Source: Desulfobulbaceae bacterium
Lineage (GTDB): Bacteria > Desulfobacterota > Desulfobulbia > Desulfobulbales > Desulfobulbaceae
Reading direction: 5' to 3'
NCBI GenBank assembly: GCA_026990385.1
Contig: JALXDL010000039.1
Location: 4,466-68,465, forward strand
Length of the DNA stretch: 64,000 nucleotides
The notes beneath the pieces were generated by a model that was given only the letters and a program-made list of their open reading frames with translations, made no database searches and was not told the origin of the DNA. Made by a program: the position numbers and the translations under genes. This document shows positions 14,324 through 36,440 of this stretch, piece by piece; position 1 is the first letter of the stretch; the number at the start of each line of letters is the position of its first letter.

Positions 14324-15654
14324 TGTTCATGGACTATCTTCCGGCCTGGATGTTCCTGGCCCTGACCATCCTGCTCATGGCCGGCTTCCCGGTCACCTTT
14401 ACCCTCCTTGGCACCTCGCTCGTTTTCGGGCTGATCGGCTTCGGCTGGGACTTTTTCAATCTCCTGCCCCTGCGTATCTGGGGCATCATGACCAATGTCA
14501 CCCTGCTGGCCGTGCCGCTCTTTGTCTTCATGGGAGTCATGCTGGAACGATCCGGCCTGGCCGAGGACCTGCTCGACACCATGGGGCTGCTTTTCGGCCG
14601 CATCCGCGGCGGACTTGCCGTCTCCACCGTGGTGGTCGGCGCCCTGCTCGGCGCTTCCACCGGCATCGTCGGTGCCACCGTGGTCACCATGGGGTTGCTG
14701 GCCGTGCCCACCATGCTCAGGCGCGGCTACCAGAAGGAGCTGGCCACGGGTACGGTTTCGGCCTCCGGCACCCTGGGCCAGATCATTCCGCCCTCCATCG
14801 TCCTGGTCCTGATCGGTGACATCGTCGGTGTGCCCGTGGGCGACCTGTTCATGGGCGCGGTCCTGCCCGGGCTGGTCCTGGTGGGACTCTACATCGCCTA
14901 CATCCTGGTCGTGGCCACCCTCAGGCCGGAGATCGCGCCGCCGTTCCGGATGGACAGCGAGGGCGGCCTGCACGGTATCGACCTGATGCTGCGGGTGCTC
15001 AGGTCGCTGGTGCCGCCGCTTTTCCTGATGGTGGCAGTGCTCGGTTCCATCTTCGCCGGCATTGCCTCGCCCACCGAGGCGGCCGCGGTGGGCGCGGTGG
15101 GGGCCACCCTGCTCACCGCGCTCAACCGGCGTTTCAGTCTGAAGATCCTGCAGCAGGTCATGGATTCCACCCTGCAGCTCACCTGCATGGTATTCATCAT
15201 CCTGGTGGGTGCGGCCGCCTTCGGCCTGGTCTTCCGCGGCACCGGCGGCGACGACCTGGTGCGCAGCTTTCTTGCAGGTATTGCCGCTGTCCATGGCCGC
15301 TGGTTCGTGCTGTTCGTGGTCATGGCACTCATCTTCGTGATCGGTTTTTTTCTCGATTTCATCGAGATCACCTTTATCCACGTGCCGGTGCTGGCACCGA
15401 TCATGATCGAGTTCGGCTTTGACCCGGTCTGGCTCTGTATCCTGATCGCGGTCAACCTGCAGACCTCGTTCATGACCCCGCCTTTCGGCTTTTCGCTGTT
15501 CTATCTCAAGGCTGTCTGCCCGCCGGAGGTGCGGACGGGGCACATCTACAGGGGCATCATCCCCTTTGTCGTCTGCCAGCTTGCCGGCCTGCTCATCGTT
15601 ATCCTCTTTCCCGGCCTCATCACCTGGCTGCCCCGGGTGGTTTTCAGCCAGTGA
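14323..15654 (+). CDS. dctM: TRAP transporter large permease
   Basis: LAVPLFVFMG, ASTGIVGA, GTLGQIIPPS, SPTEAAAVG and SFMTPPFG motifs; TGATG coupling to dctQ. Confidence 0.93.
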   Translation: MFMDYLPAWMFLALTILLMAGFPVTFTLLGTSLVFGLIGFGWDFFNLLPLRIWGIMTNVTLLAVPLFVFMGVMLERSGLAEDLLDTMGLLFGRIRGGLAVSTVVVGALLGASTGIVGATVVTMGLLAVPTMLRRGYQKELATGTVSASGTLGQIIPPSIVLVLIGDIVGVPVGDLFMGAVLPGLVLVGLYIAYILVVATLRPEIAPPFRMDSEGGLHGIDLMLRVLRSLVPPLFLMVAVLGSIFAGIASPTEAAAVGAVGATLLTALNRRFSLKILQQVMDSTLQLTCMVFIILVGAAAFGLVFRGTGGDDLVRSFLAGIAAVHGRWFVLFVVMALIFVIGFFLDFIEITFIHVPVLAPIMIEFGFDPVWLCILIAVNLQTSFMTPPFGFSLFYLKAVCPPEVRTGHIYRGIIPFVVCQLAGLLIVILFPGLITWLPRVVFSQ

Positions 15655-15680
15655 CCGCGCGATTTCCGTACAAGGAGTTC

Positions 15681-17177
15681 ATGATGGCACCCCGCACTGT
15701 CTCCCGGAACATACTGGTCAAGGGGCTCTGCTGCCTCCTTCCCCTCCTCGTTCTCTGGCCCGCCACCGGCGGCCTGTCCGCTACGGGCAGTGAGATCACC
15801 GCGGCCGTGCAAAGGCGGTGGACCGGTGATTTCGACCAGATGGTCAAGCTCCACCGTATCCGGGTGCTGGTCCCTTTCAGCAAGACCTTCTACTTCCTCG
15901 ACGGTGGCCGGCAGCTCGGTTTTACCTACGAGATGGTCCGGCGTTTCGAGGAGTTTGTGAACAAGCGGCTGAACAAGGGGCATGTCAAGGTCAAGGTGGT
16001 GATCATCCCCACGCAGCGGAACCGGTTGCTGCCCGACCTGGTGGCCGGCCGTGGTGACATCGCGGCCGGCAACCTGACAATAACCACCGGGCGGCTCCGG
16101 AGCGTGGATTTCAGCGACCCCTTTTTCACCGATGTCAGCGAGATCATCGTTACCGGGCCCGGCGGACCGCCGCTGCACACTATTTTTGATCTTGCCGGCC
16201 GGGAGATCTATGTCAGGAAGTCGAGCAGCTACTACGACAGCCTGCGCCGCCTGAACGAGGGGTTGCAGGCGATGGGAAAGAAACCGGCAGTCATCCGGCT
16301 GGCGGATGAGTACCTGGAGGACGAGGACCTCCTGGAGATGGTCAATGCCAGCCTGATTCCCATGATCGTCATTGATTCCCACAAGGGAACCTTCTGGCGG
16401 CAGATCTTCAGGTCCATTACCCTGCACCCGGAGATCAGGCTCCGCAGCGGCGGCCGGATCGGCTGGGCGATCCGCAAGAACAGTCCCCGCCTCCTGGCCG
16501 AGATCAATGAGTTCGTCCGCAGAAACAAGAAGGGAACACTCCATTTCAACATCCTCTTCAACCGCTATCTCAAGGATACCAGGTATGTCAAAAACGCCCT
16601 GTCAGAAAAGGAGATCAGAAAGTTTGAACAGACCCTGGACCTGTTTCGCAAGTATGGTGCGAAGTATGATTTCAACTGGATCATGCTGGCGGCCCTGGCC
16701 TACCAGGAGTCGGGGCTGGACCAGAACAGGCGGAGCAGGGCCGGCGCCATCGGCGTGATGCAGATCCTGCCCTCCACGGCTGCGGACCCCAACGTCGGGA
16801 TCAGCAATATCGAGAGGATAGAGAATAATGTTCATGCCGGCACCAAGTATCTCCGTTTTATGGTTGACCGCTATTTCAACGACTCCGGCATGGACAGGCT
16901 CAACCGGGGGTTGTTCGCCTTTGCCGCCTACAACGCCGGACCGGCCAGGATTGCAAAGCTGCGGCGGGAGGCGGCCGGGGAGGGATTGGATCCCAATGTC
17001 TGGTTCAACAACGTGGAGCTGGTGGCCGCTCGCCGGATCGGCCGGGAAACCGTGCAGTACGTGGACAATATCTACAAGTACTATGTGGCCTACCGGATGA
17101 TCGTCCGCAGAAACAACCGGGCCCTGGTGGGCAAGTCCCTGCTGAAAGAGCAGCTCAGGAAAGAGGACGGCCGGTAG
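15681..17177 (+). CDS. MltF-like protein: family-3 solute-binding domain fused to a lytic transglycosylase SLT domain
   Basis: GRGDIAAGNLTIT SBP segment; AYQESG, GAIGVMQI and FAAYNAG SLT motifs; AAGGAG RBS before the ATG at 15681. Confidence 0.88.
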   Translation: MMAPRTVSRNILVKGLCCLLPLLVLWPATGGLSATGSEITAAVQRRWTGDFDQMVKLHRIRVLVPFSKTFYFLDGGRQLGFTYEMVRRFEEFVNKRLNKGHVKVKVVIIPTQRNRLLPDLVAGRGDIAAGNLTITTGRLRSVDFSDPFFTDVSEIIVTGPGGPPLHTIFDLAGREIYVRKSSSYYDSLRRLNEGLQAMGKKPAVIRLADEYLEDEDLLEMVNASLIPMIVIDSHKGTFWRQIFRSITLHPEIRLRSGGRIGWAIRKNSPRLLAEINEFVRRNKKGTLHFNILFNRYLKDTRYVKNALSEKEIRKFEQTLDLFRKYGAKYDFNWIMLAALAYQESGLDQNRRSRAGAIGVMQILPSTAADPNVGISNIERIENNVHAGTKYLRFMVDRYFNDSGMDRLNRGLFAFAAYNAGPARIAKLRREAAGEGLDPNVWFNNVELVAARRIGRETVQYVDNIYKYYVAYRMIVRRNNRALVGKSLLKEQLRKEDGR

Positions 17178-27262: not shown

Positions 27263-28678
27263 TCAGGCCCTCCCCTCGGCTGCAACGGTTGCGACGGCCG
27301 CGTTCTCACCCCTGCGCACCGTCATGACGATGTTGTAGATGAAGACGATGATTCCGGCCAGGTAGACCAGGCCGCCCGCGGCCCGGATCCACCAGTAGGG
27401 ATACATCTCGACCATGGTCTCCATGAAGGTGTAGGTCAGGCTGCCGTCCGGGTTCATGGCGGTCCACATCCCGGCCTGCAGGACCCCGGCGATCCAGAGC
27501 GAGATCGACCACATGAGCTGGCCCACCAGGATCAGCCAGAACTGGAGGTTGGCCAGGGGAATGGAGTAGAGTTCCCGGCCGTAGATGCGCGGCACCAGGT
27601 AGTAGATGGAGGCAAAGGCGATCATGGAGACCCAGCCCATGGTGCCCATGTGGATATGGGCCGGGATCCAGTCGGTGTAGTGGATGAAGGCGGAGAAGGT
27701 CCGGATCGCCTGCATGGGGCCCTGCAGGGTCTGCAGACCGTAGAAGGTGATGCCGACGATCAGGAACTTGACCAGGTAGTTGTCCCGCATCTGGTGCCAC
27801 TGGCCGTTCATGGAGAGGTAGCCGTTGAAGACCGAGCCCCAGGAAGGCGCGATCAGCATGACGGAAAAGGCCATGGCCAGGGTCTGGATCCAGTCCGGGA
27901 CCGGGGTCCAGAGCAGGTGATGGGCGCCGGTCCAGAGGTACATGAAGATCAGGCTCCAGAAGGAGATGATGGAAAGCCGGTGGCTGTAGATCGGCACCCG
28001 GGTCGTCTTGGGCAGAAAGTAGTAGAACATGGCCAGGGGCGGGGCGGTGAGCGCCATGGCCACGGCGTTGTGGCCGAACCACCATTCGACGTTGGCGTCA
28101 TTGGTGCCGGCATAGGCCGAGTAGGACTTGAACAGCGAGACCGGAACCTCGGCGCCGTTGACGATGTAGAGGATGGCCACGCCGATGATCGAGGCCATCA
28201 TGTACCAGAGGGAGATGTACATCCGTTCCTCTTTGCGCTTGATGATGGTCATGATCACGTTGATGGCAAAGGCCACCCAGAGGATGACCACCATGACGTC
28301 GATGGGCCACTCCATCTCGTGGTATTCCTTGCTGGTGGTGTAGCCCAGGAGCAGGGTCACGGCCGAGGCAAGGATGGTGGCGTTGAAGAACCAGAGCTGG
28401 AACCGGGCCAGTGTCGGACTCCAGAGGGGAGTGCGGCACAGCCGTTGCACGATGTAGAGGAAGGTGGCGAAGATGACCCCGACCCCCCAGCCGTAGATGC
28501 CGGCATTGGTGTGGATGGGACGCAGGCGGCCGAAGGTGAAGTAGGGTGGAAAGTTGAGTGACGGGTTGACCATCTGGAAGGAGACAACTACCCCCACCAG
28601 GACGGCGACCAGCCCCCAGACAATGCTCCAGTTGACAAAGCTTCGGACGATGTCGGTGTCATACCGGGTCTGTTGCAT
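27263..28678 (-). CDS. ccoN: cbb3-type cytochrome c oxidase subunit I
   Basis: GRLRPIHTN, KEYHEMEW, WWFGHNAV, WTGAHH and AHIHMGTMGW heme/CuB ligand motifs. Confidence 0.96.
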   Translation of the reverse strand: MQQTRYDTDIVRSFVNWSIVWGLVAVLVGVVVSFQMVNPSLNFPPYFTFGRLRPIHTNAGIYGWGVGVIFATFLYIVQRLCRTPLWSPTLARFQLWFFNATILASAVTLLLGYTTSKEYHEMEWPIDVMVVILWVAFAINVIMTIIKRKEERMYISLWYMMASIIGVAILYIVNGAEVPVSLFKSYSAYAGTNDANVEWWFGHNAVAMALTAPPLAMFYYFLPKTTRVPIYSHRLSIISFWSLIFMYLWTGAHHLLWTPVPDWIQTLAMAFSVMLIAPSWGSVFNGYLSMNGQWHQMRDNYLVKFLIVGITFYGLQTLQGPMQAIRTFSAFIHYTDWIPAHIHMGTMGWVSMIAFASIYYLVPRIYGRELYSIPLANLQFWLILVGQLMWSISLWIAGVLQAGMWTAMNPDGSLTYTFMETMVEMYPYWWIRAAGGLVYLAGIIVFIYNIVMTVRRGENAAVATVAAEGRA

Positions 28679-29255
28679 TCTTTTCCTCCTTTTGGATAAC
28701 AGTGCACGCTGTCAAGCCTTTCATACCGGTAGTGTACTACAATGTTCCTGATTATTTAATGGAATTTATTATCAGACGGGACTGGAAAGTCAATAGTTAT
28801 TATTGCCGTCTGACAGGTTTTTTTCACCTGACGGCTGTCAGCCAGGAGTTTCCAGGAGTGAGCCATGAAGGAAGGGGGTGGAGCAGGGACGGCGGGAAAA
28901 GAGTGACCAGCGCCATTTCGGTCATGCCGCCTCTCGACGGATTTCGGAACCATGATATAATGCAGTAACACAAGCCGGAACCGGGCTGATCCGGAGGCAG
29001 GGGACGGGCGTCGGAGCAGCCCTGTGCCGGCGGCGGTATCGGTCGGACTTGCTGCCGCCGTCATCCGTTCCATTCCCTTCCCCTGCCACCGCCCTGCAGT
29101 GTCAGGGTGGGATGTTTTCTGTTTTCATCGTTGGTTGTGCCTGCTGCTGCGGGCATGCCGGTTTATCCGGAAATGGCCGCCCGCGGTGTGGCACTGGCGG
29201 CGCCATTTTCATGGTTGGTCGAGGCTCGGGCCGCAACAGAACACCGGGAGACAGC

Positions 29256-30437
29256 ATGTCCAGAATCATTACCATCGCAAGCCAGAAGGGCGGGGTAGGG
29301 AAAACTACCACTGCTCTCAACCTGGGATATGGCCTGAGCAGGGTCGGGAAAAGGACCCTGGTCATCGACGGTGATCCCCAGGGGGGCCTGACCGCTGCCT
29401 GTAACCTGAAAAAGAAGACAGCAAGGGGACTGCTCCATGTTCTGGAGGAGGAGATCGACGCAGCCGGCCATCCCGCCGGATTCCTGTTCCATGAAAACCT
29501 GGCCATCCTGGGCTCAGGCGCCATTGACGCCAATGACATCTCCCGCCTGGAAGAGGCGGCAGAGCAGGGGCAACTGGTCCCTGCCATCCAGCGGCTTGCG
29601 GCCGGTTTTGAATACGTGCTTCTCGATGCGCCCGTGGGAGTGGGCCGGATAGCCAGGGCGCTTCTCTCTGCCAGCGATTTCTACCTGATTGTCATCAACT
29701 GCAAGGCCGGAACCATGAAGACCCTGCCCCGGATGATGCGGACAGCCGAGTGGGTCAGGGCAGAGGTCAAACCGGACCTGCGTTTCCTCGGTGTCCTGGT
29801 CAACATGTACGATGGTGACAGTTCCCCGGAGAAAAAGATCTATGCCTATTTTAAGGCCAGCCTGTCCCGGAATTTCTTTTTTGACACGGTCATCCCCCTT
29901 GACGACCGATTTGAACGGGCAAGTTTTCATTCCGTTCCCGTGGCCATGCTACGGCAGGGAGAAAATCCGTTCTTCCCCCATGCGTCGCTGGCCGGGGAAC
30001 TTCTTGCGAGAACCGCCGATACGGCGGCGCCCGGTGGTCCGGCGCCGGCCGGTGAAGGCGGGCCGCGCCGGGACGAGGACGATTTCTTCATGGACCGGCT
30101 GCAGGAACTGTGCGAGAAAAACGGCTACAGCAGCGCCCTGCTGGCCGACGAGATGGGGCTCTCCCTGACGTCCTGCAACTGTACCATCGACACCGATGCC
30201 CTTGCGGCCTTCACCTCGGTCCTTGCTGATTCCCTGGAAAAGGCGGAAAGCGTCCTTGACCAGGAGGACCCAAACAACATCACCCTGGAGGTCAACGAGT
30301 CCGACAGGATTATCCTCCATCGTTTCAAGGCCCTGAATTCCACCTACTTCCTGCTGCTCACCGGTCCCCGGGCCGCTGTTTTTCCCGGAACCATCGAGGA
30401 GACGGTTGCGGCGATTCGCGCCCGGCTGACCGGGTAG
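29256..30437 (+). CDS. ParA/MinD-family ATPase fused to a C-terminal roadblock/LC7-like domain
   Basis: KGGVGKTT deviant Walker A, IDGDPQG, LLDAP; GP-rich linker; then ALLADEMGLSL...AAFTSVL...ITLEV roadblock-like pattern. Confidence 0.8.
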   Translation: MSRIITIASQKGGVGKTTTALNLGYGLSRVGKRTLVIDGDPQGGLTAACNLKKKTARGLLHVLEEEIDAAGHPAGFLFHENLAILGSGAIDANDISRLEEAAEQGQLVPAIQRLAAGFEYVLLDAPVGVGRIARALLSASDFYLIVINCKAGTMKTLPRMMRTAEWVRAEVKPDLRFLGVLVNMYDGDSSPEKKIYAYFKASLSRNFFFDTVIPLDDRFERASFHSVPVAMLRQGENPFFPHASLAGELLARTADTAAPGGPAPAGEGGPRRDEDDFFMDRLQELCEKNGYSSALLADEMGLSLTSCNCTIDTDALAAFTSVLADSLEKAESVLDQEDPNNITLEVNESDRIILHRFKALNSTYFLLLTGPRAAVFPGTIEETVAAIRARLTG

Positions 30438-30463
30438 GGGCGGGTGCAACCGATTGCATGATC

Positions 30464-30599
30464 AATGACTCGTTGTTTTCACATCCTTAAGGCCGTGAAT
30501 GTGGCGCAGGCGCCCCGTACCCGTGCAGGGCCTGCCGGTTCCCGGCAGGCCCCCTGGGCGGGCCGATACGACCGTGCAGAGAAGGGGGTGTCTGCGACA
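30464..30599 (+). repeat. D + inverted C' + spacer + C element
   Basis: D (30464-30490) is 24/27 identical to 59814-59840; C copy CGACCGTGCAGAGAAGGGGGTGTCTGCGACA at 30569-30599; same architecture as 38584-38709. Confidence 0.75.
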
Positions 30600-30616
30600 G
30601 ACGAACGTGGGCGGCG

Positions 30617-31246
30617 CTACCCCTCAATGGACAGGAAATAGCAGCACATGTGGCTGTCAAGCACCTTGTCCACCACCTCCCTGTCCACGCCGCTCTCCTT
30701 GATCCATTTGTCGGCAAATCCCTTGTGGCCTGAACCGGATTTGCATCCGAGCTGGTATATCCTGATCTTTTTGCCGCCAATGGTGATTTTGTCGGCAACC
30801 GCGCTGCGCATGGGCTGATGAACGGCGCAGAAAGGACTGACCCCGGCTCCTTCACCGATGCGGTACATGTCGGTCACGCGGCTTGGCTTGTTAAACTCGC
30901 TGGTGAAATCATCATAGCCGTCAGGCAGTTTTTTGAAGACAGCGGTATAGTTGTTTATGGAGGGCCCAAAGGGGCATTTGGCAAGTCCGAAGACATGATC
31001 ACCCATGTGCCTGGATTTTCCCTCGACCATGGCCACGGGGTTTGTTGTATTCTCCATCGCCTCGAGGTACTCTTCAAAGCTCTCATAGTCGACTTCCCGC
31101 ATCCTCGCGGCGGCACCCAGGGCATTCCTGATCAGGGTCCCCTTGGCATTGGCCGCTCCACCCATGGTGATCATCACCTTGATCATGTCCAGAAAGCTGA
31201 CATGGGCGATGTCGAGGATATTGTCCTTTTTCGTGTCCTTTTTCAT
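30617..31246 (-). CDS. Hypothetical protein with spaced Cys/His motifs (V4R/MetOD1-like, tentative)
   Basis: 209 aa; KCPFG, PFCAVH, LGCKSG and HMCCY; co-oriented 9 nt downstream of the receiver-roadblock gene. Confidence 0.75.
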   Translation of the reverse strand: MKKDTKKDNILDIAHVSFLDMIKVMITMGGAANAKGTLIRNALGAAARMREVDYESFEEYLEAMENTTNPVAMVEGKSRHMGDHVFGLAKCPFGPSINNYTAVFKKLPDGYDDFTSEFNKPSRVTDMYRIGEGAGVSPFCAVHQPMRSAVADKITIGGKKIRIYQLGCKSGSGHKGFADKWIKESGVDREVVDKVLDSHMCCYFLSIEG

Positions 31247-31255
31247 CTTGTCTTT

Positions 31256-32416
31256 TTAAACTCCTGCTTTTTCTTCGATTTCCCGGACGTGCTTTTTTAT
31301 CTTCAGCCTGATCATGCCCAGGTTGGCGTCCTTGTCGGCAATGATGACCAGGAAGGCCTCGCTGCCGACCGGTGACAGCATCACGGGACCGTTTTCATAC
31401 TCGACCATGGTCATGGACATCCCGCCCTTCTGGAGCTGGTTACCCATGGCTTCGGAGGCACCGAAACCGCTTGAAGCGATGGCCCCGATCATCTCGGTAT
31501 CGACACCGGAGAGGGCAATACTTTCCAGTAAAAAGCCGTCTCGACCCACCAGGCAGGCGGTGTTGACACCGCTGATACCGGTAAACTCTGTCAGTAGTTG
31601 TTTCAGTTCGTCCATACCGTACTCCTTTGCAAAAAAATCCATGGCGGCCGGACCACCGGCCACCCCTGGCGGTCCGCCGCCGGTACCGTCCGCCGTGCCG
31701 CCATCTGCCTGGTGGCGGTCCGCCTGTTCCTGTTCATCGGCCATCATTGTCCCCTTCAGCAGGAGGACATCGACCGGGGTGTCGATTGTTGTCTCTGGCA
31801 AGGTCGGCGGGAAAAAGGCCTCGATCTGGCCGCCCTTGAAATTGATTATCCTGTAAAAAGCCTCTTCTCCTTCCAGGTCACCGCAGGTGGCATGAACGAT
31901 GCTGCCCTCGGAGAAATAGAGTGTTCCCTCTGCGCCGTCGGCCCGGATCCGCAAGGCGGTGGATGCCTGGGAGAGCCTGTTGACCTGGATGATATCGGTG
32001 AGCTGAAGTCCGCTTACCTTCCCCTCGAAAGAGGAGCCCTGGTGGAGAGCCTGGCGGATCGTGCACCTCATCTGGTTGATATCAAAAGGCTTCTCGATAA
32101 AGCACAAGCCACCGTTTTCCATGACCTCGTTCTTGCTTTCCGCAGAGGGATACGCTGTCATGACAATGACCGCGATGCCGGGGCATGCTTTCCTGGCCGC
32201 GATCAGCAGGTCGATGCCGCTGATGCCCGGCATCTTTATGTCGGTGATGATCAGGTCAACTTCTGTCTTTTGCAGGATTGCGAGCGCCTCGTTGCCGGAC
32301 GAGGCCGTGAGGATCGCGACCTGCAGGTTGTCGTTGGGCAGGTTTTTCTGGAGAGACCAGATCATGTCCTCTTCATCGTCAACAATCAGTACCTTTTTCC
32401 TGTCTGCTGTTTCCAT
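31256..32416 (-). CDS. Response regulator: REC + DUF4388/PATAN + MglB-like roadblock/LC7 domain
   Basis: VLIVDDE, IITDIKMPG, MTAY, FIEKPF (REC); LTDIIQ...GTLYFSEGSIVHA..GEEAFY..G (DUF4388); ACLVGRDGFLLE..MVEYENG..ANLGMIRL (MglB-like). Confidence 0.88.
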   Translation of the reverse strand: METADRKKVLIVDDEEDMIWSLQKNLPNDNLQVAILTASSGNEALAILQKTEVDLIITDIKMPGISGIDLLIAARKACPGIAVIVMTAYPSAESKNEVMENGGLCFIEKPFDINQMRCTIRQALHQGSSFEGKVSGLQLTDIIQVNRLSQASTALRIRADGAEGTLYFSEGSIVHATCGDLEGEEAFYRIINFKGGQIEAFFPPTLPETTIDTPVDVLLLKGTMMADEQEQADRHQADGGTADGTGGGPPGVAGGPAAMDFFAKEYGMDELKQLLTEFTGISGVNTACLVGRDGFLLESIALSGVDTEMIGAIASSGFGASEAMGNQLQKGGMSMTMVEYENGPVMLSPVGSEAFLVIIADKDANLGMIRLKIKKHVREIEEKAGV

Positions 32417-32504
32417 GGCACATTCCAGCTCAAGTCTTTTTTCCGCCCGGTCTCCCGCTTCCCCTGCCGCGCCCAGGTTCCCCTGAAGGCAGCCGGAGGT
32501 TCCT

Positions 32505-34157
32505 TCAGGCGGCGCTCTCAAACAACATGACAAAAGCAGTTCCTGCCGCCGCCCGGGTTTCAAGCGCGATGAAGGCATTGTTCTCATGCAGTATCCGCTG
32601 GACGATGGCGAGGCCGAGCCCGGTGCCGTGATGCCTGGTGGTAAAAAACGGTTCAAATGCCCGCTTTGCCACCTCCGGCGTCATGCCGCAGCCATTGTCC
32701 CGAAACGATACCGCCACGTAGCCTGTTTCCCGGGCCGGGCCCGGCATCGGCCACGCATACTGCTCTTGCAATTTCCGGCCGGCCCGGCGAGCGCTGATGT
32801 GAATCCTGCCATTGCTGCCAACCGCATCGATGGCGTTGAGCATGAGGTTCAACAGCACCTGGTGCAGCTGGCCCGGATCAACGAGGATCTCCGGCAGCCC
32901 CTGCTCGTACTCTTCGGTCAGGGCAATCCGTTGACGTTCGATCTTTCCCCTCACCAGCAGCCGCATCTCTTCCACGGCCCGCCGGAGGCATATTGTCTCC
33001 CTTTCCGCCTTTCCGGGTGTTGCATAGGTGAAGAACTCATTGAGCAGGTCGTTGAGCCGGTCGACCTGCCTGATGATTCTGCGGATATATTCCCTGTTCT
33101 CATCGTCTTTGTCGCAGTTTTCCTCAATGGCCTGCGACATCGTCTTGATCCCGGCCAGCGGATTGCGTATCTCATGGGCCACGGCCGAGGCAATCTCGGC
33201 CACTGTGCTGAGCTTGTTCATCTTTTTCATTTCCTGTCCGATCCGGACCATCTCGGTGACATCGTCAAACTGGAGGATGCGGCCGATCTGTTCACCCGAG
33301 GAGTTTTCCAGGGCCACCGTGGTGTAGCGCAGGGTACGCTCCATGCCGGCACGGTCATGGCAGCGGATCTCTTCCGGACCGGAGGCGGTCTGCCCGTTGT
33401 GACGGAGCATGGAGCGAACCAGTGGGTGGTCGGCGAAGACGGTGTTATCGGGGGGAACCGGGTTTTCTCTGTCCAGGAAACGGCCCAGGATCATCCGGCC
33501 GGAGGAGTTGAGCTTGAGTATCTTCGAATTGTGGCCACAGACCATGAGCCCACCCCTGATGGAGCGGATGATGGATTCGGTCATCTTCTGCTCGTCTGAA
33601 ATCCTGGTAATCATCAGCTCCTGTTTCCTGACCAGGCGCTGGAGGGCTGTTTCGGTCTTTTTCCTCTTGACCACGCTGGCGAGAATATTGCTGATCGCCC
33701 ACAGCATCTCTTTCTCGTCACGGCTCCGGGCATGCCCGTGGCGCAGGTACAGGGTCAGGACACCGAGCATCTCCTCGCCTGCGCAGATGGGAACGCAGTA
33801 GTGGCCGTGGGGAACCATCCTGCCGGCCCGGATGTCATGGCGGTGGTCCACGGAACCGGCATACTGCATGGTGCCGGTAAGGGCCGCCCGGCCGCAGTGG
33901 CAGGTGCCGAGGGGAATCCTGCGACAGGCCGCCGCCTGTCTGCGGTCGAATCCCCGGTGGACACAGAGGATGAGATGGTCGGAATCTTCGGCCATGAGGA
34001 GGATGGCCCCCTTGTTGACGAGGTTGAAACGGTTGTACAGCAGGACGCTGTCCAGGGCGTGCAGCAGGATCTCGTTCAACGAGACATCTTCCATGGCGAC
34101 CCTGAGGATGGAAGAGACGATCTGCTGATACATGGCTGAAAGTTCAGGTGGCCGCAT
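32505..34157 (-). CDS. Cytoplasmic GAF-PAS histidine kinase (NtrB-like)
   Basis: AHEIRNPL H-box, QVLLNLMLNA, RDNGCG and EPFFTTRHHGTGLGL; start uncertain (ORF open to 34328). Confidence 0.9.
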   Translation of the reverse strand: MRPPELSAMYQQIVSSILRVAMEDVSLNEILLHALDSVLLYNRFNLVNKGAILLMAEDSDHLILCVHRGFDRRQAAACRRIPLGTCHCGRAALTGTMQYAGSVDHRHDIRAGRMVPHGHYCVPICAGEEMLGVLTLYLRHGHARSRDEKEMLWAISNILASVVKRKKTETALQRLVRKQELMITRISDEQKMTESIIRSIRGGLMVCGHNSKILKLNSSGRMILGRFLDRENPVPPDNTVFADHPLVRSMLRHNGQTASGPEEIRCHDRAGMERTLRYTTVALENSSGEQIGRILQFDDVTEMVRIGQEMKKMNKLSTVAEIASAVAHEIRNPLAGIKTMSQAIEENCDKDDENREYIRRIIRQVDRLNDLLNEFFTYATPGKAERETICLRRAVEEMRLLVRGKIERQRIALTEEYEQGLPEILVDPGQLHQVLLNLMLNAIDAVGSNGRIHISARRAGRKLQEQYAWPMPGPARETGYVAVSFRDNGCGMTPEVAKRAFEPFFTTRHHGTGLGLAIVQRILHENNAFIALETRAAAGTAFVMLFESAA

Positions 34158-34742
34158 GTCGTGCCCATCCGTTCCGCCCGTTCTCCCGGTCCCGGCATGG
34201 TCCACCCCGGTCCGCCGTCCGTCGGCTTCACCGAAAGAATAGATGTCGCTGCGGTGTGCAGCCATCTGGCCGTAACTCGTCACGCGATGATCTCCCATCG
34301 TTTGCCCATGCTCCCGCCTCTCCTCCACGCCCTGTGGTGTGGTGGCATGACCGCGAGGTTTTCACAGGTATATTGTATCATGCAATCATGATGCGTCCAG
34401 GGCATAAATTGGTAGAATTCCGAAATTAATCAAGAGTGATTATTATTCGTTTTTCAGGTGCGATGTCGCCACAATGTGGGAGGGACGCCTTTGATGGTGC
34501 GCAGGGCCGGAAAAACAGGCGGGAAAGGCAGGTGTGTCTGCGGACGGCCGCCACTGAGCGCCGCCACTGAGCAGGGCGGGGACAGACGCAGTGAAAACGC
34601 GGGGTGGAGAGGGTCCGGCGAGAGGGGTGCGGCCGCAGGAGGCAGGGGGTGAAGGCGGGCTGCGGAGCCCCGTCCCCGGGACAGGAGGGCCCCCGGCCAG
34701 GGGTCCCGCAATACCGGCGGTCCCGGTATTGCGGGACCGGCA

Positions 34743-36440
<1,698 letters not shown>

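Follow-up and report, generated by a model that had tools for sequence, protein, structure and literature searches.

The stretch of DNA analysed here, hereafter the window, comprises 64,000 nucleotides (nt) of the genome of a Desulfobulbaceae bacterium (assembly GCA_026990385.1, contig JALXDL010000039.1, positions 4,466 to 68,465 of the forward strand), and the present work concerns a four-gene module that it encodes. On the minus strand, an operon of three genes specifies a sensor kinase, a response regulator which combines a receiver (REC), a PATAN (DUF4388) and a Roadblock/LC7 domain, and a protein with conserved cysteines and histidine, hereafter the Cys3His protein, whose gene starts 9 nt past the stop codon of the regulator gene. 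On the plus strand, a single gene (29256-30437) encodes a ParA ATPase of 393 amino acids (aa) that carries its own roadblock-like domain, and this gene converges on the operon at a distance of 179 nt. A sequence-only reading of the region had described these four genes and their domains; Pfam, NCBIfam and AlphaFold2 confirmed both the gene positions and the domain assignments (Table 1). In none of the four proteins did a hydropathy analysis predict a transmembrane segment.

Table 1. Features of the ParA/roadblock module, with their positions in the window.
Feature	Coordinates	Strand	Assignment and remarks
GAF-HisKA-HATPase_c sensor kinase	32505..34157	-	Pfam, NCBIfam; GAF at about 33669-34082, followed by a PAS-like linker
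REC-PATAN(DUF4388)-Roadblock/LC7 response regulator	31256..32416	-	REC at about 32042-32416, PATAN at about 31730-32026, MglB-type roadblock 31259-31615
Cys3His protein, 209 aa	30617..31246	-	candidate small new family, remote V4R/Bet3/BcsD-type fold
ParA/Soj-like ATPase domain of the fusion, residues 1-255	29256..30020	+	Pfam AAA_31, CbiA, CBP_BcsQ
Low-complexity Pro/Gly/Ala linker of the ParA fusion	30021..30080	+	pLDDT (predicted local distance difference test) below 50 at residues 257-274
Divergent roadblock-like domain of the ParA fusion, residues 276-393	30081..30437	+	AlphaFold2 fold, family profile
Convergent intergenic region, 179 nt, with a G+C-rich hairpin	30438..30616	.	probable transcript ends of both units

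For comparison, related loci (designated L001 and so on) were mapped with home-made hidden Markov models, one for each part of the module and applied to the loci fetched to that point. A scan of metagenomes with the roadblock-like profile yielded only 5 loci and a scan of genomes with the Cys3His protein only 9, so that the neighbourhood statistics rest on about 25 loci.

Judged by their sequences, the kinase and the receiver domain keep all catalytic and phospho-acceptor residues. The kinase matches the Pfam models GAF_2 (E 9.5e-09), HisKA (9.1e-16) and HATPase_c (9e-19), possesses the H-box histidine (His328) as well as the N, G1 and G2 boxes, and is covered from residue 182 to residue 547 by an AtoS-like NCBIfam model, which implies the PAS-like linker. 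Gene callers favour a start located upstream, at 34265, which would give a kinase of 586 aa. The regulator matches Response_reg (7.8e-24), DUF4388/PATAN (PF14332, 1.2e-12) and Robl_LC7 (PF03259, 1.9e-16); its roadblock domain, residues 272-360, scores 60 bits against a PF03259 cut-off of 23, and the receiver residues D13, D14, D59, T87 and K109 are all intact. In most relatives (L003, L013, L014, L019, L023, L026 and L004), the kinase gene and the REC-PATAN-Roadblock gene are separated by a gene for an NtrC-type sigma-54 regulator. It is missing from the window, where the interval is 32417-32504, and from L001, suggesting that this transcriptional branch was lost or moved in the lineage of the window.

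The C-terminal domain of the ParA fusion was characterized from its predicted structure and from its family. The AlphaFold2 model of the whole protein has a mean pLDDT of 82.7, with values of 76-92 in the C-terminal blocks, and residues 276-392 are folded as alpha-beta-beta-alpha-beta-beta-beta-alpha, which is the roadblock/LC7 topology (helices 276-289, 313-334 and 380-392; strands 293-298, 303-307, 341-345, 350-359 and 362-371). When a profile built from 21 such domains was compared with the PDB, the top matches were all dynein roadblock/LC7 chains, aligned from end to end with E values of 0.05-0.08. PF03259 is matched by 10 of the 21 domains (best E 6.6e-05) and LAMTOR5 by 9 of them; the window's own domain reaches 15.5 bits, against the same cut-off of 23, and some stand-alone relatives carry PF03259 or the JGI name 'Roadblock/LC7/MglB family'. 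A Foldseek search with the whole model returned in its top 50 only ParA/MinD-type structures and is uninformative on this domain. We accept the C-terminal domain of ParA as a divergent roadblock domain, the sequence support being weak but consistent. Two cysteines are conserved in its family, C286, which is invariant, and that of a 'VCPQ' motif, present in at least 90% of the members; ParA from the window has a glycine at the latter position (residue 370, 30363-30365, 'LLTGPR').

The Cys3His protein has no match in Pfam, NCBIfam or PADLOC. A search of 1.84 billion cluster representatives gave 80 representatives at E <=0.001, and the family search gave 439 proteins in 90% clusters; by these comparisons it is a small new family. 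In an alignment of 38 homologues, C91, C140 and C201 never vary, and H143 and R147 do so only rarely. The protein was modelled by AlphaFold2 with very high confidence (pLDDT 95.3, predicted template modelling score 0.90), and the first 33 Foldseek matches of the model in the PDB are all BcsD/AxCeSD, the V4R domains of PoxR/MopR/DmpR or Bet3/TRAPP proteins, with weak scores (E 0.03-1.3; template modelling (TM) score 0.26-0.39 normalized by query length and at most 0.51 by target length). With the V4R-type Pfam model no significant match was obtained for any of the 38 members, one of which matched MetOD1 with E 0.042, and a profile search of the PDB with the family retrieved nothing relevant. 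In the model, the three invariant cysteines and H143 sit at the ends of strands and helices, which fits the description of the Zn-binding sites of V4R and archaeal TRAPPC3 proteins (PMC10933270). We tentatively place the Cys3His protein among the remote members of the V4R/Bet3-type fold and predict that its conserved residues form a Cys3His metal site.

In both Thermodesulfobacteriota and Nitrospirota, the loci compared always have the regulator-type roadblock domain next to the Cys3His gene. Between the two phyla, identities are 63-80% for the Cys3His protein and 56-69% for the roadblock domain, against 36-41% for the whole regulator and 22-29% for the kinase; over all loci of both phyla taken together, the identity of the roadblock domain ranges from 56 to 93%. 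At the level of sequence, the roadblock/Cys3His pair is thus the invariant, tightly spaced core of the module. The high identity of the Cys3His protein across phyla may reflect either a very strong constraint or a transfer of the roadblock/Cys3His pair between them. A Nitrospirota variant (L008:6990-11801) has neither ParA nor REC-PATAN: it encodes, in this order, an AAA_22/STAND-like ATPase (485 aa), a stand-alone roadblock protein (120 aa), the Cys3His protein, a 431-aa protein without assignment and a 268-aa protein that ends in a second regulator-type roadblock domain. In this locus, another P-loop ATPase may serve the roadblock/Cys3His pair.

The relationship between ParA and its roadblock-like domain is best seen in loci where the two are encoded separately. 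The nearest stand-alone ParA proteins are of about 269 aa and are 44-47% identical to that of the window over the ATPase domain. In two of these split modules, from a Thermodesulfovibrionales contig (L015) and from Geomonas (L016), the operon encodes a roadblock protein (121 aa), an oxygen-binding diiron protein (ODP) of the metallo-beta-lactamase type (249 aa), in some cases an HD protein, a PAS kinase, a REC-PATAN protein, ParA, a roadblock-like protein and a second REC-PATAN-like protein. The gene for the roadblock-like protein (175-199 aa) overlaps the stop codon of parA by 26 nt in both loci, and its product is homologous to the C-terminus of the window's ParA (33-36% identity, E 1e-16 to 5e-19). 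Two metagenome contigs (L020 and L021) have a five-gene form (roadblock, ODP, REC-PATAN, ParA, roadblock-like), in which the ParA gene again overlaps its roadblock-like neighbour, and 9 further stand-alone ParA/roadblock-like pairs lie on contigs of matching size in both lists of matches. Since the two genes are separate and overlapping elsewhere, the fusion in the window constitutes a Rosetta-stone link, the genes having been fused in the window's lineage. From the gene arrangements, ParA and the divergent roadblock-like domain are thus dedicated partners. The stand-alone partners start with a conserved peptide (consensus DSSEIxEAARL, in which S8 and E9 are nearly invariant), followed by a Pro/Ala-rich spacer and then by the roadblock domain. 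The linker of the fusion, whose length varies among homologues, corresponds to this spacer. By analogy, the succession of peptide, linker and globular domain would resemble the layout of many ParA partner proteins.

We also observed 8 contexts in which the ParA fusion adjoins the regulator/Cys3His pair, with flanks of 8 kb or more in 7 of these; this adjacency is kept down to 33% identity of ParA. The fusion gene is convergent with the operon in the window, L001, L003/L023, L014 and L017, and it belongs to a single co-directional operon in L013, L019 and L026. Nine further fusion/Cys3His pairs lie on contigs of matching size, several of which measure only 2-12 kb. The coupling of the ParA fusion to the operon is frequent and not obligatory. 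A failure of the fusion to co-occur with the operon in other genomes, which would have refuted the sequence-only reading, was not observed: the fusion accompanies the operon in several other loci and in both orientations, but not in four loci that contain the fusion, nor in Nitrospirota.

A gene for a protein with a cyclic nucleotide (cNMP)-binding domain and a PilZ domain directly adjoins the ParA fusion in three modules that are among the more distant ones, namely in L014 (8874-10004), where it overlaps the start of ParA, in L019 (8408-9523) and in L013 (11970-13016); there is no such gene beside the window's module. These neighbours hint at an input by cyclic nucleotides or cyclic di-GMP. 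In the window, a cbb3 oxidase operon (ccoN, 27263-28678, minus strand) is divergent from ParA, an arrangement seen only in this genome and in near-identical contigs. Cytochrome bd genes follow the fusion in L022 (9236-11903) and in L025 (13855-16522), which represent one clade only, and two hemerythrin genes are present in L013. Together with the ODP of the split modules, the oxidases and the hemerythrins hint at an oxygen or redox theme. A general link between the fusion and terminal oxidases was rejected, cbb3 and cytochrome bd being each limited to one lineage.

The sequence-only reading had called the module GTPase-less and had proposed that ParA may replace MglA. A tblastn search with M. 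xanthus MglA gave no match below E 2.5 in the 64-kb window or in 24 of the 27 loci fetched, so that the absence of an MglA-type GTPase is borne out for the window and extends to the loci searched. It does not extend to the whole genome: coupled mglA-mglB pairs are listed for Desulfobulbus propionicus and Desulfotalea psychrophila (supplement of Wuichet and Sogaard-Andersen), and since these related Desulfobulbales encode them, an mglA gene is likely to be present elsewhere in this genome. Such an mglA would bring its own mglB and would therefore not explain a roadblock domain fused to ParA. The replacement of MglA by ParA has also been put forward independently in a preprint of October 2026 (10.64898/2026.10.19.760177).

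As far as the comparison of sequences allows, two pairs, MglB-type roadblock with Cys3His protein and ParA with roadblock-like domain, recur together with a REC-PATAN protein and a kinase. We favour, while giving it an even chance of being correct, a cytoplasmic roadblock-based signalling switch in which a Soj-like ParA takes the place held by MglA-type GTPases and in which the REC-PATAN regulator and the kinase connect the two pairs. The kinase would phosphorylate REC and, in most relatives, probably also the NtrC-type sigma-54 regulator encoded between the two genes. The Cys3His protein would be metal-binding, with a small ligand or a redox signal as a further possible input, and would dock on the roadblock domain of the regulator, an arrangement that parallels the Roadblock-ODP pairing in the split modules, where ODP would stand in for the Cys3His protein. 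The engagement of the regulator's roadblock domain with the ParA-roadblock protein, either as a roadblock heterodimer or as a dimer-on-dimer platform, would then depend on REC phosphorylation and on the state of the Cys3His protein, and would in turn set the ATP-dependent dimer state of ParA. ParA-ATP and PATAN would finally relay the signal to a target, most likely the placement or the activity of an envelope machine. ParA itself would probably serve as a nucleotide switch and not as a positioning motor that rides on a surface. A broader formulation, which we find somewhat unlikely as a whole, would make roadblock-fold proteins, so far known to regulate Ras-like (TRAFAC) GTPases or to serve as their platforms, the dedicated regulatory platform of a SIMIBI-class ParA. 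A metal-binding sensor of Bet3/V4R fold would be docked on this platform, and the assembly, with its NTPase that ends in a roadblock domain, its additional roadblock subunits and its Bet3-like subunit, would mirror the logic of Rag-Ragulator and TRAPP. The nucleotide switch would be driven by a phosphorelay combined with a redox or ligand signal, and the exchangeability of the sensors (ODP in split modules) would point to a general sensor-roadblock-ParA principle in anaerobes.

Several observations weigh against such a switch. The regulator/Cys3His pair is absent within 8-10 kb of the ParA fusion in L022, L024, L025 and L027, and the Nitrospirota loci end at the Cys3His gene, as a kinase-regulator-Cys3His unit with no ParA nearby. 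The Cys3His family search gave 439 proteins, against about 45 full-length ParA fusions among the matches listed, so that ParA is at most a lineage-specific partner. As to the roadblock heterodimer proposed in the sequence-only reading, the roadblock domains of ParA and of the regulator are, by sequence, only remotely alike: hhalign aligned the two families in register on DG[FL], but with E 0.0095 and a probability of 4%. The roadblock domain of the regulator could engage in cross-talk with an MglA encoded elsewhere. Finally, the V4R/Bet3 assignment of the Cys3His protein, leaning as it does on weak Foldseek scores, is a tentative one.

Some of these observations would also be expected if the two units were merely neighbours, the kinase, the regulator and the Cys3His protein acting through PATAN or through a distant MglA, of which the regulator's roadblock domain would be a GTPase-activating protein (GAP) or a platform, and the ParA-roadblock protein having a separate function. 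The four fusions without the operon nearby and the Nitrospirota modules without adjacent ParA are in line with this independence, as are the mglA-mglB pairs of related Desulfobulbales, the documented PATAN-MglB links to MglA and the fact that the units are convergent, and not co-transcribed, in the window. On the other hand, they form one co-directional operon in L013, L019 and L026, their adjacency is maintained in both orientations down to 33% ParA identity, and in the operons of the split modules, which also contain an MglB-type roadblock gene, REC-PATAN genes flank ParA and its roadblock-like neighbour. Moreover, the MglA genes published for relatives already have their own adjacent MglB. 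We consider independent units improbable.

A second alternative concerns the role of ParA itself, which the sequence-only reading had presented as a positioning ATPase. In a classical cargo-positioning system, ParA-ATP would sit on the nucleoid and the roadblock-like domain would be the adaptor or ATPase activator that connects it to a cargo such as a respiratory complex, chemoreceptor arrays or pili; the two-component branch would do no more than tune the process. The ATPase domain has a deviant Walker A motif (SQKGGVGKT), and in 27 full-length homologues K16, D38, D40 and D124 never vary and K11 hardly does. Its best sequence match in the PDB is Soj from Thermus thermophilus (E 6.7e-29, Foldseek TM score 0.9), and the structures closest to the model, Soj/ParA and McdA, speak for positioning, as does the peptide-linker-globular layout of the stand-alone partners. 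Chemotaxis genes are found upstream in L023, and in the window, L022 and L025 the fusion has a terminal oxidase operon as its neighbour. However, no cargo gene is conserved across loci, and the columns of the family that correspond to the DNA-binding positions of Soj are variable (D/R/G/E/K/N/T at the T. thermophilus motif 'DGR' and R/Q/S/L at 'PRNVR'). They align with R189 and R218 of B. subtilis Soj, the two arginines required for non-specific DNA binding. A MinD-type C-terminal membrane helix was not found either, the C-terminus being roadblock-like with a maximal hydropathy of 1.35 over 19 residues. Because both the Soj arginines and the MinD helix are missing, ParA is probably a nucleotide switch and not a positioning motor; the classic positioning role is thus doubtful, and we regard a cargo-positioning system as distinctly improbable. 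No parB gene adjoins the window's ParA fusion. The marks used to separate ParA clades are mixed in it: DGDPQ contains the glutamine of PriB1, and the Walker A motif starts with the serine that marks PriB2. PriB1 ParA proteins are described as having an asparagine at the start of Walker A and a glutamine two residues after DxD, in the available part of the preprint (10.64898/2026.10.19.760177).

That the module is an anti-phage or conflict system, with ParA as switch or effector, seems a very remote prospect: ParA, V4R and profilin/longin-like domains do occur in predicted immune systems according to the available text of that preprint, but the same text places MglB-linked ParA among core cellular systems, PADLOC detected only generic P-loop and REC similarity, the components are highly conserved and not fast-evolving, the flanking genes (glnS and the cbb3 oxidase) are of housekeeping type and no effector domain is present. 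We rejected the defence reading, PADLOC having given no match beyond this generic similarity.

The proposed ParA switch shares features with several known systems. One of them is MglA/MglB (with MglC and RomR-RomX) of Myxococcus xanthus and Thermus thermophilus, which likewise has an MglB-type roadblock protein, a receiver-domain input, associated PATAN proteins and, as for MglB and MglC, two different roadblock paralogues per module. In contrast, there is here no MglA in the window or in the loci searched, the sole nucleoside triphosphatase (NTPase) is a SIMIBI-class ParA that bears a roadblock domain itself, and a Cys3His protein, V4R/Bet3-like by its tentative fold assignment, is an obligate neighbour. 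PATAN-MglB gene links are known, and 328 of 749 MglB-family proteins are orphans without nearby MglA, none of which had been studied experimentally by 2014 (Wuichet and Sogaard-Andersen).

The Streptomyces conservon, made of the kinase-like CvnA, the roadblock protein CvnB, CvnC and the GTPase CvnD, differs by several traits. In the present module the kinase is soluble, the roadblock domain is fused to REC-PATAN, ParA is found instead of an MglA-family GTPase and the Cys3His protein is not of the DUF742 family. Indeed, DUF742, to which CvnC belongs, has no Pfam match in the locus, and no GTPase was detected there by tblastn with the M. xanthus MglA query. The cyanobacterial regulators of the PatA type also combine REC and PATAN; the receiver is intact here, but the order is REC-PATAN-Roadblock and not PATAN-REC, and no pilus genes are linked. 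In Synechocystis, PATAN is an output domain which binds the pilus motor proteins PilB1 and PilC.

Another likeness is with the Rag GTPases and Ragulator and with the Rag-like GTPase-roadblock fusions of Asgard archaea, where a P-loop NTPase with a C-terminal roadblock domain is associated with further roadblock proteins; the weak LAMTOR5 matches of the C-terminal domain of ParA fit such an architecture. Asgard GTPase-roadblock fusions, as well as Zn-binding TRAPPC3/V4R proteins, have been described (PMC10933270). Here, however, the enzyme is a ParA/Soj ATPase and not a TRAFAC GTPase, and the likeness is one of architecture, which does not imply homology of the assemblies.

The sequence-only reading had presented the module as a candidate undescribed system, a claim weakened by the preprint mentioned above, in which the central idea already exists as a one-line comparative observation: among MglA-MglB-centred systems, ParA, encoded with MglB-like proteins, is read as a switch that displaces MglA (10.64898/2026.10.19.760177, Fig. 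2B panel 16). The concept of ParA in place of MglA is thus on record. In the text of that preprint, as far as it was available, a single sentence is devoted to it, with no mention of the fusion and of its relation to the split form, of the Cys3His family, of ODP or V4R-like sensors paired with roadblock proteins, or of a two-component input and its wiring. Our literature search yielded no paper linking roadblock with DUF4388, nor roadblock with an ODP, and the best-ranked papers on roadblock, ParA and MinD describe no roadblock partner of a ParA ATPase.

Together with its split relatives, the locus offers part of the orphan MglB proteins a concrete NTPase partner, a ParA ATPase, the fusion counting as gene-level proof of the partnership. 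If the regulation of ParA is real, the reach of roadblock proteins would be widened from GTPases to SIMIBI ATPases, and a new class of ParA partner proteins would be added. The candidate link would connect a ParA-type switch both to two-component signalling and to the sensing of small molecules or redox state. The locus also supplies a defined set of four soluble proteins suited to reconstitution, one of which represents the new Cys3His family, highly conserved and confidently modelled.

The remaining observations concern the surroundings of the module. Besides the cbb3 oxidase operon, it is flanked by glnS (34743-36440, minus strand). In the convergent intergenic region, a local stem near 30527-30551 is strong in RNA folding, the region as a whole being unexceptional (z -1.54), and no T-tract terminator was called there. 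A scan for sigma-54 sites (TGGCAC-N5-TTGC, at most 2 mismatches) gave 75 matches for 74 expected and is uninformative. Sigma-70-like sites, as mere consensus matches, number 8 in the region for 2.1 expected. One such match lies upstream of ParA (28934-28961, plus strand; TCGACG-16-TATAAT with an extended TG), and another upstream of the kinase gene (34372-34469, minus strand). In L022, where the ParA fusion has no regulator/Cys3His neighbours, a gene 5 kb away from it (14534-16933) encodes a 799-aa REC-PATAN-DegV fusion.

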